From Acidaminococcales bacterium (GTDB lineage: Bacteria; Bacillota; Negativicutes; Acidaminococcales; JAISLQ01): DNA of 64,000 bases. The DNA lies in contig JAISLQ010000075.1 in NCBI GenBank assembly GCA_031290885.1, positions 41,670 to 105,669 on the forward strand, written 5' to 3'. The position numbers were made by a program, and so were the translations under genes. The notes under the pieces are model-generated. The model made no database searches. It was not told where the DNA came from and saw only the letters and a list, made by a program, of their open reading frames with translations. This document shows, in pieces, positions 17,394-48,913 of this stretch (its first letter is position 1; the number at the start of each line of letters is the position of its first letter).

Positions 17394-17446
17394 CTATGGA
17401 CAAATGCGAACCCGGCTCGCGCGTTTATCGCCGGGAAGTCGTTCGC
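17390..17446. repeat. direct repeat copy 1 (att-like; starts with the GCCA 3' end of the tRNA)
   Basis: GCCACTATGGACAAATGCGAACCCGGCTCGCGCGTTTATCGCCGGGAAGTCGTTCGC. Confidence 0.9.
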
Positions 17447-17495
17447 GGTAGTGTTTCAATTAGACTTTAATAAATGATAGGGAAGTATATTTTTA

Positions 17496-18209: not shown

Positions 18210-18216
18210 GGGGGCT

Positions 18217-19215: not shown

Positions 19216-19217
19216 CG

Positions 19218-19238
19218 GAAAACTCAAAATGAGTTTTC
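19218..19238 (+). terminator. weak hairpin after the methyltransferase gene
   Basis: GAAAACTCA-AAA-TGAGTTTTC, with no clear T-tail. Confidence 0.3.
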
Positions 19239-19348
19239 AGAGGGTGTTAGGATTCGCCCTTATTCCCGATGGTATGCCCGCGATTGTGCCACAGGATGTT
19301 TTTAAGCGGGTGCAGGAGCGAACGGAGAAGATGAAGCGGCAGCCGTAA
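19229..19348 (+). pseudogene. short fragment resembling an internal segment of a large serine recombinase
   Basis: The 39-codon ORF ends ...IPDGMPAIVPQDVFKRVQERTEKMKRQP-stop. The (h)IVxxxxFxxVQ pattern is recalled from serine-recombinase 'recombinase' domains. It has host-like G+C. Confidence 0.3.
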
Positions 19349-19400
19349 GAGCGCTCCATATCAGCGATTTTCGCTGTTCGCATTTGGACGGCAATGCCCT

Positions 19401-19457
19401 GCCACTATGGACAACCGCGAACCCGGCCCGCGCGTTTATCGCCGGGAAGTCGTTCGC
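19401..19457. repeat. direct repeat copy 2 (att-like), which doubles as the tRNA-Ser terminator stem
   Basis: GCCACTATGGACAACCGCGAACCCGGCCCGCGCGTTTATCGCCGGGAAGTCGTTCGC, followed by TTTTGTTTTT. Confidence 0.9.
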
Positions 19458-19470
19458 TTTTGTTTTTAAT
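19414..19470 (+). terminator. intrinsic terminator (GCGAAC CCGGC ... GCCGG ... GTTCGC + T-run)
   Basis: Nested stems inside repeat copy 2. Only this copy retains the TTTTGTTTTT tail. Confidence 0.6.
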
Positions 19471-19505
19471 CTTGCCTAAGCGCTTGCGCCCTTGTGTCTT
19501 TTACG

Positions 19506-19534
19506 TTGCCCTTATACCTTGTGCATGATAAAAT
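19506..19534 (+). promoter_or_regulatory. promoter TTGCCC-17 nt-TAAAAT with a TG extension
   Basis: Hexamers at 19506-19511 and 19529-19534, with TGA immediately 5' of the -10. Confidence 0.45.
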
Positions 19535-19583
19535 GAATTAGGCATTGGATGATAACGTATCGAAAGCGCAGGAGGTGTGCTTG

Positions 19584-20525
19584 GTGGGGTTTACATATAT
19601 AGATTTATTTGCGGGCATTGGCGGCTTCCATCAGGCGGCCGATGCTCTTGGCGGCGAGTGTGTTTTTGCAAGCGAAATTGATGCAGAAGCTAAGAGAGCA
19701 TATGAAGCGAACTATGGCCTTGCGCCGCATGGAGACATCACGAAAATTATTGCAGACGATATACCTGACCACGATGTGCTATTTGCTGGGTTCCCTTGTC
19801 AACCATTTAGCATTATTGGGAGCAGGCGCGGTTTCGACGATATTCGGGGAACTCTGTTTTTTGAAATCGCCCGCATACTTGAAGGAAAAAAAAATAAGCC
19901 GCAATTGTTCATATTGGAAAATGTTAAACAATTGAGCCGCCATAATAAGGGAAAGACCTTACAAACCATAATTGAAACATTGGAGCAACTCGGATATAAA
20001 GTTAAACATGACATTCTCAATGCTTTAGATTTTGGGTTGCCTCAAAAACGCGAAAGAACGATTATCGTGGGATTCCTAGACCAAAATGTTTCGTTCGCTT
20101 TTCCCGCGGAGAAGACATTGGGCAAGCTTGAAGATGTCTTGGAACCGAATGAAACGGTCGATTCTAAATTTTTTGCCAGTGAACGGATTATAGAAAAAAG
20201 ATTGACAAAACACAGGAGCGAGCATTGCCCTAGCATTTGGCACGAAAACAAAAGTGGCAACATTACGAGTTATCCGTACTCCTGCGCTTTGCGGGCTGGC
20301 GCGTCTTATAACTATTTGTTGGTGAATGGCAAACGGCGTTTGACTCCGCGCGAAATGTTGCGGTTGCAGGGTTTCCCGAATACGTTCAAAATCGTTTGTA
20401 ATGACAGCCAGACTCGCAAGCAAGCAGGCAATGCAGTTCCTGTAAATGTTATAAAAGCTGTGCTAAAGGATGCCCTTTATGCCCAGGCCGAGGTTAAGAG
20501 ACAATCAAAGGAGAGAGCCATTTGA
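19584..20525 (+). CDS. dcm: DNA (cytosine-5)-methyltransferase
   Basis: FAGIGGF (motif I), FPCQPFS (PC motif IV), ENVKQL and QAGNAVPVNV. The listed ORF starts at TTG 19545, but AGGAGG at 19570-19575 favours the TTG at 19581 or the GTG at 19584. Confidence 0.9.
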   Translation: MGFTYIDLFAGIGGFHQAADALGGECVFASEIDAEAKRAYEANYGLAPHGDITKIIADDIPDHDVLFAGFPCQPFSIIGSRRGFDDIRGTLFFEIARILEGKKNKPQLFILENVKQLSRHNKGKTLQTIIETLEQLGYKVKHDILNALDFGLPQKRERTIIVGFLDQNVSFAFPAEKTLGKLEDVLEPNETVDSKFFASERIIEKRLTKHRSEHCPSIWHENKSGNITSYPYSCALRAGASYNYLLVNGKRRLTPREMLRLQGFPNTFKIVCNDSQTRKQAGNAVPVNVIKAVLKDALYAQAEVKRQSKERAI

Positions 20526-34564: not shown

Positions 34565-35686
34565 TCAACCCTCGCTGATCCCGCCTTTTTCCACCCGATA
34601 AAAAACCGCCTGCTGCGGATTCCGAAACAAATCCTTTTCCGTCAGAGTAATGAAAGTCTGTATGCGGCCGCTGAGAAAATCTATTAGTTTTTGCCGGCGG
34701 CGGCCGTCCAATTCACTCAGCGCGTCATCAAGCAAAAGAACAGGATACTCCCCGCACTCTTCCCTTATAATCATAGTTTCCGCTATTTTCAGCGCCAGCA
34801 CGAAACTGCGTTGCTGCCCTTGGGAAGCGAACCCTTTAAGCGGCAGGCCGTCCAAAGTAAAAAATATATCGTCGCGATGCGGCCCTAAACCGGTGGAAGC
34901 GCTTTCGGTATCCTTTTTTACCCGCGCCGCCAACCCTTCTCTGTACCAAAGATAACTATTTTCGCCATTTTCCTCTAAAAACCCATCTTTGTCGCCTTCC
35001 CGGCGGCGGTAAACCATACCGGCTTTTTCCCGGCCTTCTGACAGCTCGCCGTATACCTCGGCCGCCAAACGGGATATTTTTGCCAAAGTTTTAAGACGAG
35101 CCGGCAAGATTATGCTGGCCTCTTTTGCCAGTTGCTCGTCCCACATTTCCAGCAAACCAATAGACATCCTCTTTTCCTTTATCGCGGCAAGCAATTGGTT
35201 CCTTTGCTGCAAAATCTTGTTATACCGCGCCAAAGAAAAACAATAAGCGCTATTTACCTGCGCTATTTGAATGTCAACGAACCGGCGCCTTAACGCCGGC
35301 TCGCCTTTGGCCAATTTCATGTCTTCCGGCGAAAAAATAGCCGCTTTTATCTGCCCAATCAATTCACGCGGTTTAACATTATTATTGTCAACCTTTATTT
35401 CCTTGTTTTTCCGCCGGGCGCTTTTTTTAATAACAATCTTCGTTTCCCCGCCGGTTTCCCTTTCCGCTACGACGCAGACGCCCATGCCGGATGCCGCGTA
35501 GTTTATAAGATCGTCCTCCTGAAAAGTTCTGTGCGAACAACCTAAAGCGGAAAAATACAAAGATTCTATAATATTAGTTTTTCCCTCGCCGTTTTGTCCA
35601 TACAAAACATTTATCCCGCCGGAAAAAGACCAATCGCCCTTTTGGCAATTGCGGAAATTGTCGACAAGCAACCTTTTTACCTTCAT
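34565..35686 (-). CDS. recF: DNA replication/repair protein RecF
   Basis: Start at MKVKRLLVDNFRN. It has a GQNGEGKTN Walker A, an LSQGQQR-like signature (ASQGQQRS) and a LLLDD Walker B. Confidence 0.93.
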   Translation of the reverse strand: MKVKRLLVDNFRNCQKGDWSFSGGINVLYGQNGEGKTNIIESLYFSALGCSHRTFQEDDLINYAASGMGVCVVAERETGGETKIVIKKSARRKNKEIKVDNNNVKPRELIGQIKAAIFSPEDMKLAKGEPALRRRFVDIQIAQVNSAYCFSLARYNKILQQRNQLLAAIKEKRMSIGLLEMWDEQLAKEASIILPARLKTLAKISRLAAEVYGELSEGREKAGMVYRRREGDKDGFLEENGENSYLWYREGLAARVKKDTESASTGLGPHRDDIFFTLDGLPLKGFASQGQQRSFVLALKIAETMIIREECGEYPVLLLDDALSELDGRRRQKLIDFLSGRIQTFITLTEKDLFRNPQQAVFYRVEKGGISEG

Positions 35687-35754
35687 TTTCCATTTTGTCC
35701 GCCGCCTATGCGCAGACAACGGTCAAAACGCCTTTTCCCTCCAATAACTTTCAT

Positions 35755-36876
35755 TTAAGCGCCCAACCTGATAGGAGTCATGACATAAAGATAATTTTCG
35801 TCGTTTTCTCCCGCCACCTGCGCCGGGCTGACCGAACTGTTCAAGCTTATGATGGTATATTCGCTCTCTATTCTCTTTAATATGTCGCTGATGTATCTCA
35901 TGTTAAAAGCTATTTCAATCTGCCCGCCCTTATTTTCACAGCCAATCCTCTCCGTGCTTTTGCCTTTTTCCGGATTGCTGGCGAAAATGACCATCCGGCC
36001 GTTGTCAATGTTCAGCTTCAACACGTTGTTTTCCCCTTCTTTGGAAAAAGGAGCCGCCCGGTTGACCGCTCCCAAAAGATCCGCTGTCTTTACCTTGGCC
36101 GTTTTGCCGAAAGAAGCCGGTATTACCTTGCGGTAGTCAGGGAAACTGCCTTCGATGAGCCGCGATTCCATATAAACGTCGCCGAAACGCAAGATTATCT
36201 GATGATTTTTCCAGCCGACAATCACGTCTTCCGGCAAATCGCCTAAATTTATGCTCTCAATTTCCCTCAATATCCTGGCAGGTATTACCATGGAGAAATC
36301 TCCCTGCTCGTTGTCCAACTCATATTTTTTCACCACGAGCCGGTGCGTATTGGTGGCGGCGAAAACAAGCTCCCGCCCTTTCATTTCCATCAGCACTCCG
36401 GTAAAAACCATCCGCATCTCTTTTTCGGAAGAACAGGCAAATACCGTTTTTCTGATCATCTCTTTAAGTACATCATCTTTTATCTTTATAAAATTAGTTA
36501 CGGCCAATTTATTAATTACAGGATACTCTTCGACCGGCAGACAGAAAATGACCGCTTCCCGGTCTTCGCCTGAAGATATGACAACTTTGCCTTCGTTTTC
36601 ATTTTTGTAAATTTCCACAAATTCCCGCTCGCTTTTTTCCACCACCGATGTAAAAAGCGCCCCGGCGATTACAGCCTCGCCTTCTTCGACAACTTGGGCG
36701 TCCAGCGTTACCGATACGCCAAATGTCGAATCAGTAGCCTGCAGTTCAACTTTATCTTCAAACGCTTTTAAATAAACACACATATAAACCTGAGAACTTA
36801 CCGCTTTAGACGGCAGGGCTTTTTGCAATATTTGAGCCGCTTTGCCGAGTTTTTGGGCTTGGCAGATTACTTTCAT
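35755..36876 (-). CDS. dnaN: DNA polymerase III beta sliding clamp
   Basis: 373 aa with a three-domain beta-clamp pattern, positioned between dnaA and recF. Confidence 0.95.
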   Translation of the reverse strand: MKVICQAQKLGKAAQILQKALPSKAVSSQVYMCVYLKAFEDKVELQATDSTFGVSVTLDAQVVEEGEAVIAGALFTSVVEKSEREFVEIYKNENEGKVVISSGEDREAVIFCLPVEEYPVINKLAVTNFIKIKDDVLKEMIRKTVFACSSEKEMRMVFTGVLMEMKGRELVFAATNTHRLVVKKYELDNEQGDFSMVIPARILREIESINLGDLPEDVIVGWKNHQIILRFGDVYMESRLIEGSFPDYRKVIPASFGKTAKVKTADLLGAVNRAAPFSKEGENNVLKLNIDNGRMVIFASNPEKGKSTERIGCENKGGQIEIAFNMRYISDILKRIESEYTIISLNSSVSPAQVAGENDENYLYVMTPIRLGA

Positions 36877-36894
36877 ACTTTTCCTCCGCGTTTT

Positions 36895-37145
36895 TGCTTT
36901 TTAGTTAATATTATATAAAATTTTTCGTAGTCTTAGTATTAGTATTTGTTCGTTTCGGTGATAATGTCCATTTTCTTTCTGGGCAAGGCAAACTGCTATG
37001 TGAAAAAAGCGTTGATTTAAAACTTTTAGAACGGCCTTTTTATCAACATTATCAACAGACAAACAGCAATTTAAATTTTTATCAACATTTCCAATCAGTT
37101 ATTGAGGATATTTGCACATAAAATTTGACGCCTTGTCAACATTTT
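36895..37145. promoter_or_regulatory. oriC: oriC candidate: AT-rich unwinding stretch plus four co-oriented DnaA boxes
   Basis: TTATCAACA at 37040-37048, 37049-57 and 37079-87, and TTGTCAACA at 37133-41; the consensus is TTATCCACA. Very AT-rich from 36895 to 36960. Confidence 0.6.
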
Positions 37146-37153
37146 TGCAAAGG

Positions 37154-38518
37154 TCAATCGGTATTTAAAATTTTCTGCGCGATTTCTTTGATTTCTTGTT
37201 CAAATTCCCTGTCCCTTTCCATATCCTTGGCAATCTTCTGTACGGCGTGGATTATCGTGGAATAATTTCTGCCGCCGAAAATTTCCCCGATCTTGGCGAA
37301 AGGATAATCCGTGAGGTCCCGCAAAAGGTACATAGCCACGTGCCTTGGAAAAACAGTGTCGCGGGAGCGCCTTTGCGCTAAAATATCTTCTTTTTTGATT
37401 TTATAATGCGCGGAAACTTTATCAAGTATCAAATCAGCGGTAACCGGCTGGCTTATGTTTTCGCCGATGATGTTTCTTAAAGCTGAAATAGTAGAATCCA
37501 AATTAATCGGCGTATTGTTGAATTTGGAAAAAGCGATTACCTTGCTAAAGGCCCCTTCCAACTCCCTTATGTTGTTTTTTATTTTCCCGGCGATAAAAGC
37601 GAGCACCTCATTGTCAATCGACAGATCGGCGGACTGCGCCTTTTTTCTCAGTATTGCGATCCGGGTTTCTTGGTCGGGCGGATGAATGTCGGCGACAAGG
37701 CCGCTTTCAAAGCGTGAAACAAGCCTTGCTTCCAAAGTCATTATTTCCCTGGGCGGACGGTCGCTGGCAATGACAATTTGTTTGTTGGAATCAAAAAGAG
37801 TGTTAAAAGTATGAAAGAACTCTTCTTTGGTCTGTTCCTTTTTTGCCAAAAACTGAATATCGTCAATCAGCAGGCAATCAATGTTCCGGTATTTTTTGCG
37901 AAACCCTGCGGCGGAAGTTTTGTTGCTGATAGAATCTATAAATTCGTTCGTGAATTTTTCGCTGGAAGTATAAATAACCTTGCTGCCGGTTATATTTTCT
38001 TTTATTTTATGGCCGATGGCATGCATTAAATGTGTCTTGCCGAGGCCGACACCGCCGTAAATGAACAAGGGATTGTAAATTTTGGCCGGCGTTTCGGAAA
38101 CAGCCAGTGCGGCGGCGTGCGCGAAACGGTTGGAATTGCCGATGACAAAAGTGTCAAAATTATATTTATTGTTTAAAGTTTTGGTAAATTCCTCCTCCGT
38201 CGTAAAATCGCTTTTCTTTGTCTCAATGTCGCCATTGTCTTGGGGTAATTTTTCCGTCTGTTTGTCTTCAGCCCCTTCCATGTTTACAATCCGGACCTTA
38301 ACATTTTCGGCGCATACGGCACAAAGCGCCGCCGCTAATTTTTCGCCGTAATTGCTTTCCACCTGATCTTTGATAAAATCGTACGGGGAAGCAAGCGTAA
38401 AGATGCCGTCATTCGTATCCAAAGGAATAAGGGGCATTACAAAAGTCTTAAAAACAGGAGCAGGCGTTTCCTTTTCCAGCCGGTTTAAGACTTTTTGCCA
38501 GACATCGTTTATTTCCAT
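37154..38518 (-). CDS. dnaA: chromosomal replication initiator protein DnaA
   Basis: 454 aa with GGVGLGKTHL Walker A, a LLIDDIQF box and a C-terminal DnaA-box-binding HTH. Confidence 0.97.
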   Translation of the reverse strand: MEINDVWQKVLNRLEKETPAPVFKTFVMPLIPLDTNDGIFTLASPYDFIKDQVESNYGEKLAAALCAVCAENVKVRIVNMEGAEDKQTEKLPQDNGDIETKKSDFTTEEEFTKTLNNKYNFDTFVIGNSNRFAHAAALAVSETPAKIYNPLFIYGGVGLGKTHLMHAIGHKIKENITGSKVIYTSSEKFTNEFIDSISNKTSAAGFRKKYRNIDCLLIDDIQFLAKKEQTKEEFFHTFNTLFDSNKQIVIASDRPPREIMTLEARLVSRFESGLVADIHPPDQETRIAILRKKAQSADLSIDNEVLAFIAGKIKNNIRELEGAFSKVIAFSKFNNTPINLDSTISALRNIIGENISQPVTADLILDKVSAHYKIKKEDILAQRRSRDTVFPRHVAMYLLRDLTDYPFAKIGEIFGGRNYSTIIHAVQKIAKDMERDREFEQEIKEIAQKILNTD

Positions 38519-38530
38519 GTATGGTCTCCT

Positions 38531-38550
38531 TTATGAAGCTTGCTTCATAA
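38531..38550. promoter_or_regulatory. perfect palindrome TTATGAAGC-TT-GCTTCATAA abutting the dnaA RBS
   Basis: 9-bp arms with a 2-nt centre, ending 1 bp from the AGGAG of dnaA. Confidence 0.35.
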
Positions 38551-38590
38551 ATACATCAGAAAAACATTTATCATCGTCATAGAGTATCTT

Positions 38591-38623
38591 AACAAAAATA
38601 GGCGCTCTAAGCAACAAGCGCCT
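38591..38623 (-). terminator. terminator insulating dnaA from island transcription
   Basis: The minus strand reads AGGCGCT-TGTTGCTTAG-AGCGCCT followed by ATTTTTGTT. Confidence 0.45.
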
Positions 38624-38639
38624 GACAATACTTTTTATG

Positions 38640-38720
38640 GACAGGCTTGGTTGCTTGAATATATGTGATATATAGCGCTTCAACCCAAAAATTGTTAAGG
38701 TTTCTGCAAAATATGACGGC
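38640..38720 (+). repeat. decayed copy of the rpmH promoter region (left island border)
   Basis: GACAGGCTTGGTT is identical to 48685-48697. TATAGC and TCTGCAAAATATGACGGC blocks are collinear with 48715-48740. Confidence 0.6.
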
Positions 38721-38882
38721 AATATAGGCATGGCACATAATAAAGATTATCGGCAGGCGGCGATTGATTTCAAATTGAAAAAGATGGGGCAAACATGAAA
38801 TGCAGCCTGATTGACAGCATTATCGGCAACGAAGATACTGCAAGCGCCGTTTACAAGCATTTTGATGTTGATACTTTTTAAG

Positions 38883-39137
38883 TCAGATCACATATGTATC
38901 CAATGCCTTTATTTCCGCTCCAAGCAACTCATAAAGTTTCCTCATTTCTGCTTCCGTCAAGGTTACGCCTTTGCCCATCTTCTTATGCTCGCCGTCCCAA
39001 TCGCGAACGTCATACTTAGGTTCTCCGCTATTCCAACTTACGCGATTGAACTCCTTGCGCCATCCTTTGCTTCGTTCAGAAATGACACCAAGTTCGTTGA
39101 CAATCTCGTACTTGAAATCATCCTTCTTTGTTGTCAT
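38883..39137 (-). CDS. PC4/YdbC-like ssDNA-binding family protein
   Basis: 84 aa. FKYEIV..LGVISE.SKGW.KE.N.VSWN...PKYD(V)RDW....KKMGKGVTLT resembles lactococcal YdbC. Strong AAGGAGG RBS. Confidence 0.6.
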   Translation of the reverse strand: MTTKKDDFKYEIVNELGVISERSKGWRKEFNRVSWNSGEPKYDVRDWDGEHKKMGKGVTLTEAEMRKLYELLGAEIKALDTYVI

Positions 39138-39244
39138 TGCCAGACACCTCCTTCATTTAGCCCGCCAAGCAGGTTTATTCCCAGTAACGACAGCGTTTTT
39201 CAAAGAAATATTTCATGCCTGAATGTTCCAGTGCTTTTTCAATG

Positions 39245-39562
39245 TCATTTGGAGTTGATCTTTGCTAGTCCTTGATGCCCTGTGCCGACCTCAAGTACGG
39301 TTCCCGATTTCGCGTATGCGCCGCCTTCCTTGAAAAGACGCAAATCTGCCCGGTTGCCGTTGGCAAACGCAAGGCAGAGAACCTTGCCGTCCGCTTTGTT
39401 GACTACGGCCCGTGTTTCACATCGTGCCGCTTTTCCGCTTATGAAATAGATATGATCTCCACCATTTTCGCAAATGTTGTACGCTTTGCCCCTGTCAGAC
39501 GCCGAAAATCCTGACTGGATAGTTTGACTGTTTCTTCGTATTTCATATAATGAGCATATCAC
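39245..39562 (-). pseudogene. degenerate internal fragment of a DDE transposase
   Basis: SGKAARCETRAVVNKADGKVLCLAFANGNRADLRLFKEGG...LEVGTGHQGL parallels the recalled YSGKKKRHT..K.QVVVD..TG.I....F..G..HDF.LFK.S......ADxGYQG pattern. Catalytic residues are replaced (HD to AD, D to G) and there are no flanking ends. Confidence 0.5.
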
Positions 39563-39848
39563 ATTTTTGGTTGCGCAGGAAGTCTATTGTCTGCATAGCT
39601 CTGATTGACTTCTTTGTTTGATCGATTTTTGTAGATTTGCGTTCCCGTGGCGAAAATCACCCCTTTGTTGCCCGTCGGCTCGTCAAGATGGCGGCATTTC
39701 CGAAACGCTTTGTCAAGGGATTAAATGACGCTTTCGTGCGAATGCCGAAAGTTTGTAGCATTGCACAATAAGAGCTTCGTGGGACGAGGCGTTTATTTCG
39801 CATTTTACTGATTGCGGTTCACTCTGCGAACAAAGTCGATTTGGGTGC

Positions 39849-39877
39849 TTGACATAAATTATAGCATCTGTTATAAC
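39849..39877 (+). promoter_or_regulatory. promoter TTGACA-17 nt-TATAAC for the XRE-hsd operon
   Basis: Hexamers at 39849-39854 and 39872-39877 with a counted 17-nt spacer. The spacer and -10 contain the inverted repeat TTATA-N8-TATAA. Confidence 0.5.
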
Positions 39878-39901
39878 CTATTCTTGAGGTGGTGGATAAT
39901 C

Positions 39902-40120
39902 ATGACGATCGCCGAGATTCTCAAAGCAATGCGCAATGAACTGAGCATTTCACAGGAAATGCTTGCGCGTGACTTGACCGTTAGCTTCGCAACGCTCAAT
40001 CGTTGGGAGAACCGGCGCGCCAACCCGAGCCGCCTCGCAATGTCGAAGCTCAAAGAATACGCCGCAAAGAGTGGTGTTTCAGATACGATTGTGGCGGAGC
40101 TTAACCGTATTCGCACATAA
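39902..40120 (+). CDS. XRE-family helix-turn-helix protein (72 aa)
   Basis: ISQEMLARDLTVSFATLNRWENRRANP is a classic Cro/C1 HTH. The ATG follows GAGGTGGTGG. Confidence 0.8.
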   Translation: MTIAEILKAMRNELSISQEMLARDLTVSFATLNRWENRRANPSRLAMSKLKEYAAKSGVSDTIVAELNRIRT

Positions 40121-40139
40121 CATGCGGAGGGATAAACCT

Positions 40140-41966
40140 ATGGACACAGCAACCTACAACTCAATCGTGAGTTTCATTTGGGGCATCGCCGACGACTGTC
40201 TCCGTGATGTTTATGTGCGCGGCAAGTACCGCGATGTTATCTTGCCGATGACCGTCATTCGCCGCCTCGATGCTGTGCTTGAAGCGACTAAAGATGACGT
40301 ACTGAAAATGAAGAAGATGCTCGACGACTCCGGCATTGTCAATCAGACCGAGGCACTCTGCAACGCCGCGAAACAGTCATTTTGCAACGCTTCGCCGTTC
40401 AAGCTGAAAGACCTTGCAAACCGCGCCGGCCGGCAGAAACTGAAAGCGGACTTTTTAGTATACCTTAACGGTTTTTCGCCCAATGTTAAGGAGATACTGA
40501 AAAAGTTCAAGTTTGCCGTACAGGTGGACACGATGTCCGAAGCCGGCATTCTCGGCGCGGTGATAGAAAAATTCGTGTTGCCGACTGTAAATCTTGGCCC
40601 TTACCCTGTGCTTGACGACATCGGCGGCATAAAGATACCCGCGCTTGACAATCACACGATGGGGACGGTGTTCGAGGAGCTTATACGCCGCTTCAACGAG
40701 GAAAACAACGAGGAAGCCGGGGAACACTTCACGCCGCGTGACGTGGTGGAGCTTATGGCAGACCTTGTGTTTGTGCCGATTGCCGACAAAATCAAAGACT
40801 CGACCTATTCCTGCTACGACGGCGCAAGCGGCACGGGCGGTATGCTCATGGTGTCGCAGGGACGGCTTGCCGACATTGCGCAAAAGAGTGGCAAGAGCGT
40901 GTCCATTCACCTGTTCGGGCAGGAGGTAAACCCCGAAACATTCGCAATCACCCGCGCCGATATGCTGCTCAAAGGCGAGGGCGGCGAATCTGGCAACATC
41001 GCCTATGGCTCGACGCTTGCGGACGACCGCTTTCCAAGCCGCAGCTTTGACTTTATGCTCTCCAACCCACCTTACGGCAAGAGCTGGAAAACAGACGCGG
41101 AAAAAATGGGCGGCAAGAAAGGCATACTTGACACGCGCTTTGTTACGCAGTTCAAGGACGACCCGGAGTTTTCTATGATACCGCGCACAAGCGACGGCCA
41201 GCTTATGTTCCTGTTGAACAACATCAGCAAGATGAAGCACGACACCGAGCTTGGCTCGCGCATTGCCGAAGTTCACAACGGCTCAAGCCTGTTTACGGGC
41301 GACGCTGGGCAAGGCGAGAGCAACGCTCGCCGCTATATGATTGAAAACGACCTCGTGGAAGCGATTATCGCCCTTCCTGAAAATATGTTCTACAACACCG
41401 GAATCGGCACGTTTATTTGGGTGCTGTCTAACCGAAAGACCCCGCAACGGCGCGGCAAACTGCAACTGATTGACGCAACTTCGTTCAAGTCGCCGCTGAA
41501 GAAGAATCTCGGCAAGCGCAACTGCGAGCTTACGCCGGACGACCGCAAACGCATACTCGACCTGTTCCTCAATATGACCGAGAACGAGCACAGCCGCGTG
41601 TTTGACAACTCCGAGTTTGGCTATTGGAAAGTGACCGTCCTGCAACCGCAGCTTGACGGGAGCGACAAGCCGCTCCGCGATAAGAAAGGCGCTTTTGTCG
41701 TCGATAAGGACAAAACCGACACGGAGCAAGTCCCGTTTGCATACCCCGGCGGTGTCGAAGCGTTTATCGAGAACGAAGTGAAGCCCTACGCGCCGCTTGC
41801 GTGGATGGACGAGAAGCAGACGAAAATCGGGTATGAAATTAGCTTCACCAAGTATTTCTACAAGCCTGTGGAACTGCGTCCGCTTGCTGAAATCACCGCC
41901 GACATTCTCGCGCTTGAACGCGAAACGGCAGGACTGTTGAGTGAGATTTTGGGGGTAGGGGTATAA
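40140..41966 (+). CDS. hsdM: type I restriction-modification system methyltransferase subunit
   Basis: An HsdM N-terminal domain, DGASGTGGM (motif I) and NPPYGKSW (motif IV). The ATG follows GGAGG. Confidence 0.92.
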   Translation: MDTATYNSIVSFIWGIADDCLRDVYVRGKYRDVILPMTVIRRLDAVLEATKDDVLKMKKMLDDSGIVNQTEALCNAAKQSFCNASPFKLKDLANRAGRQKLKADFLVYLNGFSPNVKEILKKFKFAVQVDTMSEAGILGAVIEKFVLPTVNLGPYPVLDDIGGIKIPALDNHTMGTVFEELIRRFNEENNEEAGEHFTPRDVVELMADLVFVPIADKIKDSTYSCYDGASGTGGMLMVSQGRLADIAQKSGKSVSIHLFGQEVNPETFAITRADMLLKGEGGESGNIAYGSTLADDRFPSRSFDFMLSNPPYGKSWKTDAEKMGGKKGILDTRFVTQFKDDPEFSMIPRTSDGQLMFLLNNISKMKHDTELGSRIAEVHNGSSLFTGDAGQGESNARRYMIENDLVEAIIALPENMFYNTGIGTFIWVLSNRKTPQRRGKLQLIDATSFKSPLKKNLGKRNCELTPDDRKRILDLFLNMTENEHSRVFDNSEFGYWKVTVLQPQLDGSDKPLRDKKGAFVVDKDKTDTEQVPFAYPGGVEAFIENEVKPYAPLAWMDEKQTKIGYEISFTKYFYKPVELRPLAEITADILALERETAGLLSEILGVGV

Positions 41967-43246
41967 TGTGGTTCGGCATACTGCCCAAGCATTGGGATAC
42001 AACTCGCCTTGCTAGCGTGTTTACCGAGCGGAACGAAAAGGTTAGCGATGCAGAGTATGCGCCACTATCTGTAACAAAGAATGGCATACTACCGCAACTT
42101 GCTCGCGCCGCAAAGACAGACAATGGCGATAACAGAAAACGTGTATGCGTTGGCGACTTCGTGATAAACAGCCGCTCCGACCGCAAAGGCAGTAGCGGCG
42201 TCTCTACGTTTGACGGGTCTGTGTCGCTGATAAACATGGCCCTTGTATTGCGCGGCAGTTATGACCTGCAATATCTGCACCACCTATTGAAAAGCCACGA
42301 CTTTATAGAGGAATATTATCGTATGGGACGCGGCATAGTTGCGGACTTGTGGACTACACGTTTCAGCGAGATGAAAACGATACAACTCCCCCTCCCGCCC
42401 CTTGTCGAGCAGAATCAAATCGTGCAATACCTCGACTGGCAGACCTCTCGACTGAACACGCTTATCAACGCCCGCAAGCGGCAGGTTGCGCTCCTGCGCG
42501 AGGCGAAGCAAGCGGCGATTAACGAGGCGGTGACACGCAGGGACGAGGGGTGGCAAGATATAAGCCTTGGCAATCTCGGTAACTTCCGTAAAGGATTTGG
42601 CGGTTCGCGCACCGATGATGACGAAAACGGTGTGGCATGTATTCGCTACGGTGACATATATCGGACTGGCAAAATGATACTTGTCGAGCCGATAACGAGA
42701 ATCAAAGATAGCGCAAAGGATTTCTATGCGCGAATTCAACGGTTGGAGTTGCTGTTTGCTTTGTCCGGTGAAACCAAAGAAGAAATCGGGCAAGCATTGG
42801 TAAACGACATTGCCGCAGACACTTGGACGAGCGGAGACGCGGCTATATTTACCTGCAACAACAGCATACGGCCTATGTTCTTGACATACGCTTTGCGCTG
42901 TCCTTACATTCTGAAACAGCGGGTTTCACGCGCAAAGGGTGACATTATCGTTCACATATCTGTAAGCGCATTGCGGCAATTACGACTGCTTGTACCGCCG
43001 ATTTCAGAGCAAGAGGAAATTGTGGCGAATCTCAATAAGCAATGTATGGCGTATGACAGCGCAATATCCGCCATTGAGAATGAAAACTCCCTCCTCGCCG
43101 AGTACCGCACACGGCTTATCAGCGACGTCGTCACGGGCAAGATTGACGTTCGCGGCGTCGCCGTCCCGGAGTATGAGCGAGTCGAAGCGTTGAACGAGGT
43201 TGAAGACGCGGAAGAAGTACAGGAGGATACTGAAAATGCCGACTAA
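41966..43246 (+). CDS. hsdS: type I restriction-modification system specificity subunit
   Basis: 426 aa with two target-recognition halves separated by conserved coiled-coil spacers (LPPLVEQNQIV, PPISEQEEIV). TAATG overlap with hsdM. Confidence 0.9.
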   Translation: MWFGILPKHWDTTRLASVFTERNEKVSDAEYAPLSVTKNGILPQLARAAKTDNGDNRKRVCVGDFVINSRSDRKGSSGVSTFDGSVSLINMALVLRGSYDLQYLHHLLKSHDFIEEYYRMGRGIVADLWTTRFSEMKTIQLPLPPLVEQNQIVQYLDWQTSRLNTLINARKRQVALLREAKQAAINEAVTRRDEGWQDISLGNLGNFRKGFGGSRTDDDENGVACIRYGDIYRTGKMILVEPITRIKDSAKDFYARIQRLELLFALSGETKEEIGQALVNDIAADTWTSGDAAIFTCNNSIRPMFLTYALRCPYILKQRVSRAKGDIIVHISVSALRQLRLLVPPISEQEEIVANLNKQCMAYDSAISAIENENSLLAEYRTRLISDVVTGKIDVRGVAVPEYERVEALNEVEDAEEVQEDTENAD

Positions 43247-46190
43247 CACACAGGAATCGGGACTTGAAAGCCTAATCGTTGACTGGCTCGTAGTGCATAA
43301 CGGTTTCGAGCAGGGCGTAAGCGCGGACTATAACCGCGAGTACGCCGTTGACGAGTTGCGCATGTTGCGCTTTCTTGAAACGACGCAACCGAAGCAGTAC
43401 GGGCAACTTGGGCTTGACGGCGCGGGGATGAAACGACTACAATTCCTTGACCGGCTGCGCGGCGAAATCGCCAAGCGCGGCATTGTTGACGTTTTCCGCA
43501 ACGGGATAAGGATTTACCCCGCCAGCCTTGTGATGTTCTATATGACGCCATCGGAGAAGAACACGAAAGCGGCGGAGCAGTTTGAGCGGAACATATTCAG
43601 CGTGACGCGGCAGTTGCGGTATTCGCAGGGCAATACGAAACTCGCGCTTGACCTTTGTCTGTTCATTAACGGCTTGCCTGTTATCACCTGCGAACTCAAA
43701 AATCAGCTTACGAAGCAGGACGTTGACGATGCGGTGTACCAGTACAAGACCGACCGCGACCCGAAAGAGCTATTGTTCCAGTTCAAACGCTGTATGGTAC
43801 ACTTCGCCGTTGACGATGCGCGGGTGAAGTTCTGCACACGGCTCTCCGGCAAATCGTCGTGGTTTCTGCCGTTTAACAAGGGCTATAACGATGGCGCGGG
43901 CAACCCGCCCAATCCCGACGGCATTATGACCGATTACCTGTGGAAAGACATTTTTACTAAGCGCGAGCTTGCGAACATTATAGAGAATTACGCGCAAGTG
44001 GTTTCTGAGAAGAACGAGGACACAGGCAGGACAAGCGAAAAGCAGATATTCCCGCGCTATCACCAGCTTGCCGTAGTCAAGGCGTTGCTTTCCGATGTCC
44101 GCAAAAACGGCGTAGGTCAGCGGTATCTGATACAGCACAGCGCGGGTAGCGGAAAGTCCAACTCCATAGCGTGGCTCGCGCATCAGTTTGTCGGGCTTGA
44201 GGTCAGCGGCGCGAATGTTGTTGACTCCGTGATTGTCGTCACCGACCGCGTGAACCTCGACAAGCAAATCCGCGACACAATCAAGCAGTTTATGCAGGTG
44301 TCGAATACCGTGGCGTGGGCGGAACACTCCGGCGATCTCCGCGCCGCTATCACGGGCGGAAAGAAGATTATCATTACGACCGTTCACAAGTTCCCGCTAA
44401 TCCTCAACTACATAGGCTCGGAGCATAAGCGCCGCAAGTTTGCGATTATCATTGACGAGGCGCACAGCAGTCAAAGCGGCAGCATGTCCACTAAGATGAA
44501 CCTCGCGCTCGGCGGCTGCTATGACCCGAACGACGATGTGGAGGACAAGATTAACAAGCTCGTTGAGGGGCGTAAAATGCTAACAAACGCGAGCTACTTT
44601 GCGTTCACCGCCACGCCGAAGAACAAGACTTTGGAGATGTTCGGCGTTCCTGTGCAGCAGGGCGACGGCACGGTTCACCATAAGCCGTTCCACAACTACT
44701 CGATGAAACAAGCCATTCAGGAGGGCTTTATACTCGACGTCCTGCGCTCCTTCACTCCGATTCAGAGCTATTACAAACTCACTAAGACCATTAGCGAAGA
44801 CCCTAAGTTTGACAAGAAAAAGGCGCAGAAGAAGCTGCGCAAGTTTGTTGAGAGCAACGACTACGCTATCAATCAGAAAGCCGACATAATGGTGGAACAC
44901 TTCCATGAACACGTCGCGCAGAAGATTGGGGGCAAAGCCCGCGCTATGATTGTGACGGCGGGGATTGAACGCGCCATTGACTATTTCCACGCCGTCAATC
45001 GTTGTCTTGAAGCACGAAAAAGCCCGTACAAGGCGATAGTCGCGTTCAGCGGCGATAAGGAATATGGTGGCGTAACCATAAACGAAGCCGCGCTTAACGG
45101 CTTTCCGAGTAACGCCATACCCGGCAAGTTCAAGGAAGGACCATACCGTTTCTTGATTGTCGCGGATAAGTTCCAAACAGGCTATGACGAACCGCTTTTG
45201 CACACGATGTATGTTGATAAAATTCTAAGTGACATTAAAGCGGTGCAAACCCTTTCTCGGTTGAACCGCGCAATGCAGGGCAAGTTAGATACCTTTGTGC
45301 TTGACTTTGCCAATGACCCTGACGACATACAAGAGTCATTCTCGCGCTATTACCGCACAACGATGCTTTCAGGCGAGACCGACCCGAACAAGCTATATGA
45401 CCTCATAGCGGTTATGGAAGCTCACCAAGTTTACACAAAGTATCACATTGACACATTCGTTGACCTGTACCTAAACGGCGCGGAGCGCGACAAACTCGAC
45501 CCGATACTTGATGTATGCACGAACCTATACAAACGGCTTGACGAGAACGCGCAAGTTGAGTTCAAGTCGTCGGCTAAGGCGTTTGTCCGCACCTATGGTT
45601 TCTTGGGCGCAATACTGCCGCATGGCAATGCCGAATGGGAGAAACTATCTATATTCCTCAACCTGCTTCTGCCTAAGTTGCCGTCGCCCATTGAGGAAGA
45701 CCTTTCGCAAGGCATAATAAACGCTATTGACCTCGACAGCTATCGCGCCGTAGCCAAAGAACAGATGGCGATTCAGCTTGAAGACGCCGATGCAACCGTT
45801 GAACCTGTTCCGACCGGAAAGGTTGCGGGAAAGGGTGAGCCGGAGCTTGACTTGTTATCGACCATTCTCTCCAATTTCAATGACCTATTCGGCAACATTG
45901 ACTGGAAAGACGCCGACAATATCAGGCGGCAAATCGCAGAGATTCCGGGTATGGTTGCGAAAGACCAAACCTATCAGAACGCAATGAAAAACGCCGACAA
46001 GCAGGAAGCCCGCACCGAGAGCGACCGCGTCCTGCAAAGAGTGGTTATGAGCATAATGTCCGACAATATGGAGCTTTTCAAGCAATTCAACGACAATCCG
46101 CCATTCCGCAAGTGGTTACAGGATATGGTGTTCTCTATGACTTACGACAGCAATTCTGATAGAATGAAACCTGCGGAAATGAGAGATTAG
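43236..46190 (+). CDS. hsdR: type I restriction endonuclease subunit R
   Basis: N-terminal PD-ExK nuclease (LDL...CELK), SAGSGKS Walker A and a IIIDEAHSSQ DEAH box. AGGAGG RBS, overlapping the hsdS stop. Confidence 0.92.
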   Translation: MPTNTQESGLESLIVDWLVVHNGFEQGVSADYNREYAVDELRMLRFLETTQPKQYGQLGLDGAGMKRLQFLDRLRGEIAKRGIVDVFRNGIRIYPASLVMFYMTPSEKNTKAAEQFERNIFSVTRQLRYSQGNTKLALDLCLFINGLPVITCELKNQLTKQDVDDAVYQYKTDRDPKELLFQFKRCMVHFAVDDARVKFCTRLSGKSSWFLPFNKGYNDGAGNPPNPDGIMTDYLWKDIFTKRELANIIENYAQVVSEKNEDTGRTSEKQIFPRYHQLAVVKALLSDVRKNGVGQRYLIQHSAGSGKSNSIAWLAHQFVGLEVSGANVVDSVIVVTDRVNLDKQIRDTIKQFMQVSNTVAWAEHSGDLRAAITGGKKIIITTVHKFPLILNYIGSEHKRRKFAIIIDEAHSSQSGSMSTKMNLALGGCYDPNDDVEDKINKLVEGRKMLTNASYFAFTATPKNKTLEMFGVPVQQGDGTVHHKPFHNYSMKQAIQEGFILDVLRSFTPIQSYYKLTKTISEDPKFDKKKAQKKLRKFVESNDYAINQKADIMVEHFHEHVAQKIGGKARAMIVTAGIERAIDYFHAVNRCLEARKSPYKAIVAFSGDKEYGGVTINEAALNGFPSNAIPGKFKEGPYRFLIVADKFQTGYDEPLLHTMYVDKILSDIKAVQTLSRLNRAMQGKLDTFVLDFANDPDDIQESFSRYYRTTMLSGETDPNKLYDLIAVMEAHQVYTKYHIDTFVDLYLNGAERDKLDPILDVCTNLYKRLDENAQVEFKSSAKAFVRTYGFLGAILPHGNAEWEKLSIFLNLLLPKLPSPIEEDLSQGIINAIDLDSYRAVAKEQMAIQLEDADATVEPVPTGKVAGKGEPELDLLSTILSNFNDLFGNIDWKDADNIRRQIAEIPGMVAKDQTYQNAMKNADKQEARTESDRVLQRVVMSIMSDNMELFKQFNDNPPFRKWLQDMVFSMTYDSNSDRMKPAEMRD

Positions 46191-46786
46191 CTCCCTCTTC
46201 CCCGCAGGTTTCGTCAGAGTATAAAAATCCGTTTGCGCGGGGCATTCGTGTGCTCTGAACACGGCCACCTCGCGCAAAGCCTTGATTTTACTGCGCTTCT
46301 TTCGTTTTTCTCACTTCGGCGATTATTAGACTTCCTGCGCAACTTAAAATATGATGTACTAATTATAGGAGATACGAAGAAACAGTCAAACTATCCAATC
46401 GGAATTTTCGGCTTCTAACAGGGGCAAAGCGTACGATATTTGCGCAAATAGCGGAGACCCTAACGATTGCAGAAGCGGAAAAGCGGACACAAAAGCAAGC
46501 GGCCAATGCTCTCTGCGATTGAAACGGGGGATTGCGAAATTTATTTTTGGCGATATTAGCTTGATCGCCCTGGCAAACGAGCGAATTGCGGCAAATCGCC
46601 GAAAACGAAGAAATTGTTCACGCTCCCGTGGCAACGCTTATTGACCCAAAGGATGTTTAGTGCTAGTTTGCAAACACGCCCTGATTTGTCCAATTTGACA
46701 GCAAGCAAAAATTCTGCTAACGTATAGACATAACAAAGATTGGAGTTGATAGAGGGTGCGCGGCATTTCTTGCTGATAATTAAAGC

Positions 46787-46970
46787 ATGACGAAATTATG
46801 AAGATAGAGTTTTCATCTGTTTTGTCGTGCCTGCGCAAGAAAGTCGCATGCTCTTTTCGCTCAAATATTGTGCCTTGCCTTGCCCTTATGGGTTGGGCTC
46901 GCTGTGTTTTATGGGCTGCAAGAACTGGCTTTCTTGCAGCTTTCATAATTTTACGGGGAGGGACAAGGCC
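46787..46970 (+). promoter_or_regulatory. leader/attenuator of the ABC-F gene
   Basis: It contains short upstream reading frames, the terminator below and an upstream segment able to compete for the terminator's 3' arm. Confidence 0.5.
46915..46945 (+). terminator. intrinsic terminator just 5' of the ABC-F RBS
   Basis: GCTGCAAGAA-CTGGCT-TTCTTGCAGC (perfect 10 bp) followed by TTTCATAATTTT. Confidence 0.6.
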
Positions 46971-48452
46971 ATGTCGCTTATAAGCGTGTCAAATTTAACC
47001 TTTGCCTACGCGGGCAGTTATGACAACATCTTTGAAAACGTAAACTTTCGGATAGAAACCGACTGGAAATTGGGCTTTATTGGAAGAAACGGCAGGGGCA
47101 AGACTACATTCCTTAACTTGCTGCTTGACAAATATGAGTATGCCGGCAACATTTCCGCAAGTGTCAGTTTTGCGTATTTTCCGTATGATGTGCCGGACAA
47201 GCAAATAAACACAATCGATGCCATAAATAGCATTGGCCATGATTGTTTGGACTGGGAGCTTAGGCGCGAGCTTTCGCTGCTTGAAGTTTCGGACGATATT
47301 TTAAACCGGCGTTTTAACGCTTTATCTGCCGGCGAACAGACAAAAGTATTGCTTGCCGTGCTTTTTCTCAAAGAAAACAGTTTTTTGCTTATTGACGAGC
47401 CGACCAATCATCTTGACATGGCGGGCAGGGCCATTGTAAGCGCTTATTTGAAATCAAAGAAAGGTTTTATTTTGGTCTCGCATGACAGGGCTTTTCTTGA
47501 CAACTGTGTTGACCATATCCTGTCCATCAACAAAACGAATATCGAAATACAGCGGGGCAATTTTTCTTCGTGGCTTCTCAACAAGGAGTGCCAGGACAGC
47601 CAGGAAACCGCTGAAAACGAACGGTTGAAAAAAGACATCAAAAAACTGAATGAAGCCGCAAAACGTACAGCTGCATGGTCTTGCCTGGCCGAAAAAACGA
47701 AACACGGCACACGCAATTCAGGGTTGCGCCCCGACAGAGGCTTCATCGGGCACAAGTCCGCCAAAATGATGAAGCGATCCAAAGCGATTGCAGCACGGCA
47801 GCAGTCCGCAATTGACGATAAATCAGGGTTATGTAAAAATATTGAGAGCGCGGACAACTTAAAAATAACGCAAATGCGCTACCATACAAGCCGTTTGATT
47901 GCTCTTGAAGGCGTTTCTGTTTTCTACGGCGAAAAAACGGCTTGCCAAAACGTCAGTTTTTCGATCGAACAAGGCGACAGAGTTGCCTTGTCCGGCAAAA
48001 ACGGGTCGGGCAAATCAAGCGTCATAAAACTCATTTGCGGCGAGAACATGCAATATACCGGAGTTTTTCACAAAGGCAGCCGGTTGGCCGTTTCCTATGT
48101 TTCTCAGGACACTTCCTTTTTATCGGGAAGCCTGTCCGGTTACGCTTTAAGATGCGGCATTGACGAGAGCCTTTTCAAAGCCATTTTGCGCAAGCTCAAT
48201 TTTTCGAAGGTACAATTTGAAAAGGATATGCGTGATTTCAGCGGCGGACAGAAGAAAAAGGTGCTGATTGCCCAAAGCCTATGCGAAAAAGCCCATTTGC
48301 ATGTTTGGGATGAACCCCTCAATTTCATTGATGTCATATCACGTATGCAGATTGAAAATTTACTGATAGAAAATGCTCCCACTATTTTGTTTGTGGAGCA
48401 TGATAGCGTTTTCTGCGATAATATAGCGACAAAGAAAATCATGCTGAGTTAA
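46971..48452 (+). CDS. ABC-F ribosomal protection protein, Lsa-like (candidate lincosamide/streptogramin A/pleuromutilin resistance)
   Basis: 493 aa with two ABC cassettes (GRNGRGKTT; GKNGSGKSS) and no TM domain. An inter-domain linker is present, and similarity to Lsa(A) as recalled extends along the full length (NWKLGLIGRNGRGKTT, LIDEPTNHLD, ILVSHDR). Confidence 0.8.
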   Translation: MSLISVSNLTFAYAGSYDNIFENVNFRIETDWKLGFIGRNGRGKTTFLNLLLDKYEYAGNISASVSFAYFPYDVPDKQINTIDAINSIGHDCLDWELRRELSLLEVSDDILNRRFNALSAGEQTKVLLAVLFLKENSFLLIDEPTNHLDMAGRAIVSAYLKSKKGFILVSHDRAFLDNCVDHILSINKTNIEIQRGNFSSWLLNKECQDSQETAENERLKKDIKKLNEAAKRTAAWSCLAEKTKHGTRNSGLRPDRGFIGHKSAKMMKRSKAIAARQQSAIDDKSGLCKNIESADNLKITQMRYHTSRLIALEGVSVFYGEKTACQNVSFSIEQGDRVALSGKNGSGKSSVIKLICGENMQYTGVFHKGSRLAVSYVSQDTSFLSGSLSGYALRCGIDESLFKAILRKLNFSKVQFEKDMRDFSGGQKKKVLIAQSLCEKAHLHVWDEPLNFIDVISRMQIENLLIENAPTILFVEHDSVFCDNIATKKIMLS

Positions 48453-48682
48453 ACTAAAGAAATAGCCAAACCAGGCCGCAATGCGCTTTGCGGTTTAATT
48501 ATGCAGAATGGGTCTTTAAAAACAAATTCCGCAATGCCATGCCAAAATGAAACAATACGGGCAGCGCTTCTCGCGGTTATCGTTGTTTTGGTTAGGCGAA
48601 TTGTCTTTGACAAGGCCTAACTGGAAAATGTGCGATGCTTAGACTTGCCATTTACAACGCGTACGGCGAAAATGCAAAATTC

Positions 48683-48711
48683 TTGACAGGCTTGGTTATC
48701 TAACATATAAT
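48683..48711 (+). promoter_or_regulatory. rpmH promoter TTGACA-17 nt-TATAAT
   Basis: Consensus hexamers at 48683-48688 and 48706-48711. Confidence 0.6.
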
Positions 48712-48778
48712 TTCTATAGCTATCTGCAAAAATGATGGCCGTTGACAAACGGCGGATATGGCGGGAGGATTTTGCGCG

Positions 48779-48913
48779 ATGAAAAGGACTTACCAGCCAA
48801 ACAATCTTTGGCGCAAACGGACGCACGGCTTTCGTGAACGAATGAAAACCATCGGCGGGCGCGCTGTTTTAAAGCGGCGCCGCGCGCGCGGCCGGAAAAG
48901 GCTGTCGGCGTAA
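48779..48913 (+). CDS. rpmH: 50S ribosomal protein L34
   Basis: Not in the ORF track (44 aa): [53 protein letters not shown]. Confidence 0.95.

Follow-up and report, generated by a model that had tools for sequence, protein, structure and literature searches.

The junction between dnaA and rpmH is among the most conserved gene adjacencies in the Bacillota and is widely used for locating the chromosomal origin of replication (oriC). Accessory genes near oriC are known from the staphylococcal cassette chromosome (SCC) at rlmH (orfX), a system that relies on ccr serine recombinases and on attB direct repeats defined within the 3' end of the gene. Here, we describe a 64,000-nt stretch of contig JAISLQ010000075.1 (hereafter the window, to which all positions refer) from an Acidaminococcales bacterium, a host described as a gut-type bacterium, in which dnaA (37154-38518, minus strand) and rpmH (48779-48913, plus strand) lie apart, with 10,260 nt between the two start codons. 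Our analysis indicates, with a probability of roughly two in three, that the DNA between them is a mosaic islet that was assembled stepwise in an insertion-tolerant spacer, and that the landing of an element of the IS30 family of insertion sequences (IS) upstream of the rpmH promoter was the first step.

The dnaA-rpmH junction in the window and in relatives

An earlier sequence-only reading of the window had put the separation of dnaA and rpmH at 10.2 kb and had regarded the interval as accessory DNA in a normally compact, divergent junction, and both statements hold. The start codons of dnaA (38518) and rpmH (48779) were placed by alignment with relatives, in the case of rpmH with contigs L086 and L087, and the canonical divergent junction found in more distant Acidaminococcales has a gap of only 234 nt (L083 and L084) or 292 nt (L087). 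In a collection of 5.8 billion proteins, 3 close relatives with 78-85% DnaA identity were identified, and in all 3 the junction is broken, with dnaA and rpmH on separate contigs. The comparison with relatives that the sequence-only reading had called for thus yielded the compact junction in L083, L084, and L087, but none of the close relatives has an empty one. At least 7 further relatives have dnaA and yidC together on a single, often short, contig. A DnaA search of genome contigs returned only Bacilli at approximately 50% identity and no close relatives, and an exact look-up of the DnaA sequence gave no match; relatives were reached by searching for homologous proteins.

The genes found upstream of dnaA in the close relatives are an HNH-like gene (L081) and polysaccharide-synthesis genes (L082); on the dnaA side of L085, no rpmH was found within 577 nt, and the yidC contig of the third relative (L210) ends before rpmH. 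The flanks of the interval, on the other hand, are shared. On the dnaA side, a conserved block of 88 nt (38555-38642, minus strand) is 76-85% identical to L081, L082, and L085 and includes a promoter-like sequence (TTGCTT-17-TAAGAT) with an A-rich upstream element, which would represent the dnaA promoter. At approximately 38642, the homology stops and the four genomes diverge from one another; extended alignments past this position were gap-ridden and unconvincing and have been discarded. On the rpmH side, homology begins at 48643, with 84% identity between window positions 48643-48778 and the contig on which the nearest relative carries rpmH (L086). Because the flanks are shared and are followed by divergence and different cargo, we consider the interval accessory and the locus a site of turnover within the clade.

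Two further observations concern the dnaA side. A hairpin (AGGCGCT-N10-AGCGCCT, followed by ATTTTTGTT; 38600-38623, minus strand) overlaps with the promoter block of dnaA and closely follows a co-oriented PC4-like gene. As a clade-conserved terminator insulating dnaA, it was rejected, since the pairing is lost in L081 and L082 and RNAalifold predicts no structure. Moreover, the contig of the relative with 78% DnaA identity (L085:1-150) ends in low-complexity G/C runs just past a relic of an IS end described below; these runs are probably an assembly artefact, which limits what is readable there.

The region can be assigned to the origin of replication based on gene order (gyrB-recF-dnaN-dnaA on the minus strand; rpmH-rnpA-yidD-yidC-jag-mnmE on the plus strand) together with a sign change of the GC skew across 37-46 kb of the window. 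DnaA is identical (100%) to a protein from a metagenome-assembled genome (MAG) of the Acidaminococcales (Negativicutes, Bacillota) and contains the Pfam domains Bac_DnaA, Bac_DnaA_C, and DnaA_N, while rpmH (encoding L34) and the genes that follow it, rnpA, yidD, yidC, jag, and mnmE, were likewise assigned by Pfam. The likely core of oriC is the spacer between dnaA and dnaN (36877-37153), which has a G+C content of 31%, an AT-rich stretch, and three DnaA-box-like sites of the sequence TTATCAACA at 37040, 37049, and 37079. DnaA boxes are also present in the dnaA-dnaN spacer of L083, L087, L081, L082, and L085.

Upstream of dnaA (38519-39890), no DnaA boxes were found when allowing up to 1 mismatch, in agreement with the sequence-only reading. 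Its suggestion that a box cluster could have been displaced from this position does not hold, however, as relatives with an intact junction are equally free of boxes there: none were identified, again with up to 1 mismatch, in the rpmH-dnaA spacers of L083 and L087, nor in the three close relatives. A cluster of boxes upstream of dnaA, as expected for a bipartite oriC of the Bacillota type, is therefore absent from the window, L083, and L087 alike, and since relatives with an intact junction carry boxes only between dnaA and dnaN, no cluster was displaced by the islet. With the boxes located between dnaA and dnaN in this taxonomic order, the rpmH-dnaA spacer holds only two divergent promoters, and, being free of replication signals, it tolerates insertions.

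A probable IS30-family relic at the rpmH promoter

The right boundary of the interval is formed by the rpmH promoter (TTGACA-17-TATAAT, 48683-48711, plus strand), which the sequence-only reading had described as functional-looking. It matches the consensus in 12 of 12 positions and is conserved in L086, L087, and L083. Directly upstream of it, at 48639-48657 (plus strand), we identified the sequence TTAGACTTGCCATTTACAA, which probably represents a relic of the outer end of the right inverted repeat of an IS30-family element and is orthologous to an intact IS end in L086. With 2 mismatches in 19 nt, it is a match of which 64 kb of sequence would by chance yield 0.04 occurrences. Its agreement with the right inverted repeat covers 16-17 of the outer 18-19 nt, and the inner part of the repeat is not conserved. 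In L086, the C-terminus of a transposase lies upstream of the rpmH promoter and is followed by GGGCAATTTAACTTGCAATTT, before the contig breaks inside the element (L086:105-159). The transposase piece comprises the C-terminal 36 amino acids, 28 of which are identical to a full-length copy. In the window and in L086 alike, the ATTT of the IS end stops exactly 29 nt short of the -35 hexamer of rpmH. Furthermore, L085 contains an end relic of the same IS approximately 100 nt past the conserved dnaA block. Judged from these sequences, an IS30-family element probably landed ahead of the rpmH promoter at the position characteristic of its lineage; it survives in L086, while a short relic is left in the window.

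The position appears to be characteristic because the same spacing recurs elsewhere. A metagenome scan for the IS end motif recovered at least 120 contigs (L089-L208), in which a transposase of the IS30 type (231 bits to NCBIfam transpos_IS30) is encoded to the left of the motif and reads toward the promoter on the other side. Many of these contigs break approximately 105 nt inside the element. Full copies are 1.19-1.29 kb long and have matching terminal inverted repeats, with the right end reading ...GGGCAATTAAACTTGCAATTT. Among the matches listed, 73% of 75 unique right flanks contain a near-consensus sigma-70 promoter (at least 9 of 12 positions), whereas the corresponding proportions are 14% after shuffling of the flanks and 23% on the opposite strand. 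Within the same set, the -35 hexamer begins 28-30 nt after the IS end (...ATTT) in 48 of the 55 promoter-bearing flanks. The promoters serve diverse genes, namely rpsL, rpsF, guaB, prfA, mutS, a flagellin gene, and rpmH. As a separate observation, 3 of 21 full copies (L190, L191, and L201) are abutted at their ends by direct repeats of 14-18 bp, an unusually long target duplication, while the other 18 have none.

Based on these results, we tentatively suggest, as an idea with somewhat less than even odds, that a widespread IS30 lineage recognises active sigma-70 promoters and inserts on the upstream side of the -35 hexamer, at a fixed distance of approximately 29 nt, and that its arrival at rpmH turned the dnaA-rpmH spacer into a persistent landing pad for defence and resistance cassettes beside oriC. 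A literature search for promoter-targeting IS30 elements or dnaA-rpmH islands returned no pertinent description, which is not proof of novelty.

Modules of the islet

The sequence-only reading had treated the interval as one island. Instead, we found at least 4 modules with separate homology boundaries and separate G+C content, as well as relics of two IS families. Every gene that had been named in the interval is present at the coordinates given, as judged by Pfam, NCBIfam, and PADLOC, and the domain searches agree that a type I restriction-modification (R-M) system and an Lsa-like ABC-F gene are carried by it. When the entire interval was compared with plasmid and phage sequences by megablast, no meaningful match was obtained.

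The center of the islet is occupied by an XRE-hsdMSR cassette on the plus strand. It starts with an XRE-type helix-turn-helix gene (39902-40120; Pfam HTH_3), whose start was assigned by its ribosome-binding site and whose product exactly matches an annotated MAG protein. This is followed by hsdM, encoding the type I methyltransferase (40140-41966; Pfam HsdM_N, PF12161, and N6_Mtase, PF02384; PADLOC MTase_I, 772 bits), by hsdS with two target-recognition halves (41966-43246; PADLOC Specificity_I at residues 2-191 and 195-402; Pfam Methylase_S), and by an intact hsdR, encoding the restriction and translocase subunit with an N-terminal nuclease region and an SF2 translocase (43236-46190; Pfam HSDR_N, SWI2_SNF2, ResIII, and T1R_D3-like; TIGR00348; PADLOC REase_I). 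The match of HsdR to TIGR00348 (E = 3.7e-62) reaches 211 bits and stays under the curated cutoff of 285. HsdM, HsdS, and HsdR all contain the domains that define type I systems, and the restriction system is intact and probably functional. Homology of hsdM to another metagenome contig (L211; 86% nucleotide identity) begins at 40125, just before the gene, and among the hsd genes, only hsdM has relatives elsewhere with more than 90% identity.

The L211 locus (L211:5396-11900) lies in a non-origin context and has the gene order hsdM-fic-hsdS-darT-macro (darG-like), while of hsdR, only fragments are left; the locus exemplifies how defence genes are exchanged inside an hsd operon. The window itself contains a second restriction islet (17304-20525) directly after tRNA-Ser (17304-17393), which encodes an SfiI-like type II endonuclease, an N4/N6 methyltransferase, and a C5 cytosine methyltransferase and is compositionally foreign, with a G+C content of 40-45% and a G+C fraction at third codon positions (GC3) of 0.35-0.45 compared to 0.60-0.75 in the host.

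The XRE-hsdMSR cassette is flanked by two dead copies of an IS5-family element in inverted orientation, one on its left (39245-39600, minus strand) and one on its right (46313-46683, plus strand), which were recognised through their inverted repeat and translations and, for the left copy, tblastn. Inverted arms of 160 nt (39427-39586 and 46327-46486) are 85% complementary; they belong to two IS5-family transposase genes that face away from the cassette, of which they constitute the 5' ends. In the left copy, the N-terminal 35 amino acids are fused to a piece of the DDE region, with an internal deletion of approximately 270 nt, a frameshift, and a missing 3' part; the deletion follows from the fact that the two pieces are contiguous here, while they are approximately 270 nt apart in intact genes. 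Pfam gave no match to the IS5-family remnants. In tblastn searches, the N-terminal piece (47 amino acids) matched transposases that are annotated as IS5-family in plasmid records (E = 2e-4), and the DDE-region piece (70 amino acids) had its best match, with E = 4e-10, in an unannotated record, followed by annotated IS5-family transposases with E values of 1e-7 to 1e-6. The dead DDE transposase noted by the sequence-only reading is thereby placed in the IS5 family, and stops and frameshifts agree with its decay. Neither copy has retained an intact open reading frame, terminal inverted repeats, or a target duplication, and the outer ends are absent. Together, the XRE-hsdMSR genes and the inverted dead IS5 copies form a decayed unit resembling a composite transposon. 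Beside the truncated left copy lies an intact gene for a PC4/YdbC-like protein of 84 amino acids (38883-39137, minus strand; Pfam PC4, E = 3.9e-9), which is a singleton at 90% identity.

The right IS5 copy is cut off by the Lsa-like ABC-F cassette (46684-48511, plus strand), which consists of a promoter-like element, a leader, the coding sequence (46971-48452), and a short tail. Over 1,833 nt, spanning promoter-like element, leader, and gene, it is 85% identical to a contig (L209) of a MAG assigned to "Clostridiales Family XIII" (Clostridia). Since the identity of DnaA to that of Clostridia is only about 50%, we conclude that the cassette moved horizontally. Its putative promoter (TTGACA-17-TAACGT, 46695-46723) is followed by a leader of approximately 250 nt, at whose end, immediately ahead of the start codon, an attenuator-like hairpin is joined to a T-run (46913-46942). 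Promoter-like element and leader are kept in L209 (L209:9730-10000). Antibiotic-responsive attenuation is known for antibiotic resistance (ARE) ABC-F genes, and the predicted leader structure is consistent with it.

The encoded protein has two ABC domains (Pfam ABC_tran, two stretches), which are connected by a linker, and no transmembrane domain. It exceeds the cutoff of the NCBIfam equivalog for ribosomal-protection ABC-F proteins (NF000355; 455.5 bits, cutoff 380), while it matches the Lsa model (NF000167) over its full length (1-492 of 492) with 731.1 bits, 19 under the cutoff of 750. The gene is intact and probably functional. Its identity to chromosomal Lsa-type proteins across the Bacillota is 72-76%, and given this and the Lsa score below the cutoff, it may be an intrinsic-type gene that was transferred in cassette form, as opposed to a determinant of clinical resistance.

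The expectation that the islet would stand out by foreign composition and codon usage was not borne out, as a test of G+C content and GC3 does not flag it. The modules have G+C fractions of 0.42, 0.52, and 0.44 against a background of 55-58% G+C and a GC3 of 0.60-0.75. The GC3 of hsdMSR (0.58-0.68) equals that of the host, and that of the ABC-F gene (0.52) is close to those of dnaA (0.50) and dnaN (0.52). The GC skew of the islet is 0.03 compared to 0.09 in the native right flank, and only this near-zero value deviates and hints that the islet has not equilibrated. Within the native genes, recF, dnaN, and dnaA (34565-38518) have a lower G+C content (43-48%; GC3 0.50-0.53) than the background, and the genes from rpmH to jag are intermediate (51%).

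Proposed stepwise assembly and alternative explanations

In the history that we favor, the consensus promoter of rpmH would have received an IS30-family element on its upstream side in a common ancestor of the lineage of the window and its nearest relative. This insertion would have opened the spacer, and the element would later have shrunk to the relic of approximately 18 nt seen in the window. Further DNA could then have been gained and turned over in the opened spacer, with later insertions and deletions building the present islet from the XRE-hsdMSR cassette between its inverted dead IS5-family copies, the PC4-like gene beside the truncated left copy, and the self-contained ABC-F cassette, which would have arrived horizontally with its own promoter and attenuator and truncated the right IS5 copy. 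Both the R-M system and the ABC-F gene may benefit from the gene dosage of a position close to the origin.

Several points weigh against this history. A profile of IS30 right ends (nhmmer) does not recover the relic in the window, which is short, and neither an IS30 transposase remnant, nor a left inverted repeat, nor a target duplication of the 30 nt adjoining the relic was found in the window; as transposase remnant and left end are missing, the founding role assigned to IS30 in this lineage draws on its position and on the orthology with L086. No empty site was seen in relatives with more than 60% DnaA identity, and the databases contain only three close relatives, all on short contigs. Since the GC3 of hsdMSR equals that of the host, a long residence or a donor of similar composition has to be assumed. 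Finally, a 13-mer that flanks nearly the whole interval is not covered by stepwise assembly, unless it is due to chance or an older duplication.

This 13-mer (GACAGGCTTGGTT) is found exactly at 38640 and 48685 and nowhere else within the 64-kb window. The left occurrence is part of a promoter-like block on the plus strand (38635-38720), which reads TATGGACAGGCTTGGTT ... TATAGC ... TCTGCAAAATATGACGGC, has two degraded hexamers, and shows a homology to the rpmH promoter that is only nominally significant. A second, collinear block in the same orientation matches in 16 of 17 positions (TCTGCAAAATATGACGGC at 38703; TCTGCAAAA-ATGATGGC at 48723). The sequence-only reading had interpreted these repeats as a duplicated rpmH promoter and proposed to compare them with shuffled sequences. 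The repeat blocks do exist, but their statistical support is modest, with pairwise p-values of approximately 0.001 to 0.014 depending on the scoring. With gap-tolerant alignment, the pair is the best of all 695 genomic tiles and beats 993-999 of 1,000 shuffles (1-7 reach its score), whereas with strict local alignment only the 13-mer aligns and its score is reached by 12-14 of 1,000 dinucleotide shuffles. Independent queries do not recover the left block: with the orthologous promoter from L086, it is found at E = 6.6, and with a rpmH promoter profile of three species, it is not found.

The repeats would be explained if a single event had inserted a 10-kb island and duplicated the flank of the rpmH promoter, either by site-specific or Campbell-type integration or by homology-facilitated illegitimate recombination with a foreign origin fragment, leaving a decaying copy at dnaA and a functional one at rpmH. 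For a single insertion with a 13-bp duplication, the expected empty site would be ...TTTTTATG-GACAGGCTTGGTT-ATCTAACATATAAT..., also written ...TTTTTATGGACAGGCTTGGTTATCTAACATATAAT... Besides the collinear blocks at both ends, such an event is favored by the left copy being more similar to the right copy in the window than to the orthologous promoter of L086, as fits an event within the lineage, and by the loss of homology to relatives inside the would-be -35 hexamer of the left copy. We nevertheless regard it as unlikely. The open reading frames of 38640-48740 include no integrase or recombinase, base composition does not deviate as in an integrase-mediated island, and terminal inverted repeats are lacking at the would-be ends. 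Moreover, separate homology boundaries run through the interior (ABC-F at 46684-48511, hsd from 40125, and the IS5 arms), and the right junction with its IS30 end is present in L086 as well, where the cargo on the dnaA side is nevertheless different. The similarity between the two copies is also uneven, with 13 of 13 identical positions in the core, approximately 55% identity around the -10 hexamer, and an insertion of 22 nt. The 13-mer was considered as a transposon target duplication as well and rejected, since it lies 28 nt from the end of the IS30 relic and the 10-kb unit has no terminal inverted repeats. IS5-family target duplications comprise only a few bp.

On balance, we lean towards a true paralogous relation of the left block and the rpmH promoter. 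The block could be a chance match, what was once the upstream promoter of an old tandem pair, since split by IS30, or a product of microhomology-mediated integration, and it is not needed for explaining the islet. As a marker of the boundary, the IS30-family end relic at 48639-48657 has the better support.

Less probable again is a direct transposition of the IS5-bounded hsdMSR unit into the spacer as the founding event, with the IS30-like 18-mer being due to chance or irrelevant. While the inverted IS5-family arms around the R-M cassette and the lack of an IS30 transposase remnant in the window would fit such an origin, the relic lies at exactly the modal distance of 29 nt from the -35 hexamer and has its orthologue in the intact IS30 end of L086, a contig that points to IS30 at rpmH without IS5 or hsd genes, though the dnaA-proximal part of this relative is on another contig. 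In addition, neither IS5 copy retains a complete outer end from which a target duplication could be shown, and the ABC-F and PC4 modules are located outside the IS5 pair. An arrangement native to the clade through vertical inheritance, or a chimera from the assembly or binning of the MAG, would agree with the host-like GC3 of hsdMSR and the source of the sequence, a metagenome-assembled contig, but is very improbable given the different genes at the locus in close relatives, the 85% nucleotide identity of the ABC-F cassette across classes compared to approximately 50% for DnaA, the coherence of GC-skew switch and gene order along the contig, and the fact that De Bruijn assemblers make no joins at 13-mers.

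Stepwise assembly behind an IS30 element thus remains the reading that we prefer. In one clade, the conserved dnaA|rpmH junction has become a variable site for accessory genes, and the signals of the origin were left undisturbed. Consequently, programs for finding origins should not presuppose the adjacency of dnaA and rpmH. Restriction and ribosome-protection genes can, moreover, occupy the position of highest gene dosage. If the IS30 lineage does recognise promoters, the hotspot would have a mechanistic reason, and a bacterial "safe-haven" targeting strategy would have been found; if, furthermore, this lineage is undescribed, it would allow promoter-guided transposition to be tested directly in a bacterial system.

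Comparison with known systems

With regard to its components, the islet resembles several described systems. As in type I R-M systems of the EcoKI/EcoR124I type, the hsdM-hsdS-hsdR operon has overlapping genes for three intact subunits with their defining domains, while differences are the XRE-type helix-turn-helix gene ahead of the operon, the dead IS5 borders, and the distance of approximately 3 kb from the likely oriC. The inverted copies of one IS bracketing a cargo operon recall composite transposons in the style of Tn10 or Tn5, unlike which both copies are dead, the arms are 85% alike, and outer ends and target duplication are lost. The ABC-F protein shares two ABC domains, and its gene an attenuator-like leader, with Lsa-family ARE ABC-F proteins (Lsa(A)-like, conferring resistance to lincosamides, streptogramin A, and pleuromutilins), whereas its score stays under the curated Lsa cutoff.

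The IS lineage represented at the rpmH promoter agrees with the IS30 family (IS30, ISApl1, and IS1630) in its IS30-equivalog transposase, its length of approximately 1.2 kb, its terminal inverted repeats, and some long target duplications, which we take to be comparable to those of IS1630. It differs from the family in the fixed spacing of 28-30 nt to a sigma-70 -35 hexamer, and the window keeps only the relic of approximately 18 nt. To our knowledge, a fixed promoter spacing is not among the target preferences of IS30 elements, which include palindromic hot spots, their own inverted repeats, and AT-rich sites.

With SCC at rlmH, the locus has in common resistance-type and restriction cargo near oriC, a recurrently used site, and cargo that varies among related strains. 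In contrast to SCC, the islet is devoid of a recombinase, is located in an intergenic promoter region, and carries a mosaic cargo shaped by IS. IS-shaped mosaic islets with R-M and ABC-F genes are already a known kind of element, and a location that splits a conserved Bacillota adjacency beside oriC is unusual without being categorically new, so that the IS30 lineage with its fixed spacing to promoters is the most interesting by-product of this analysis.

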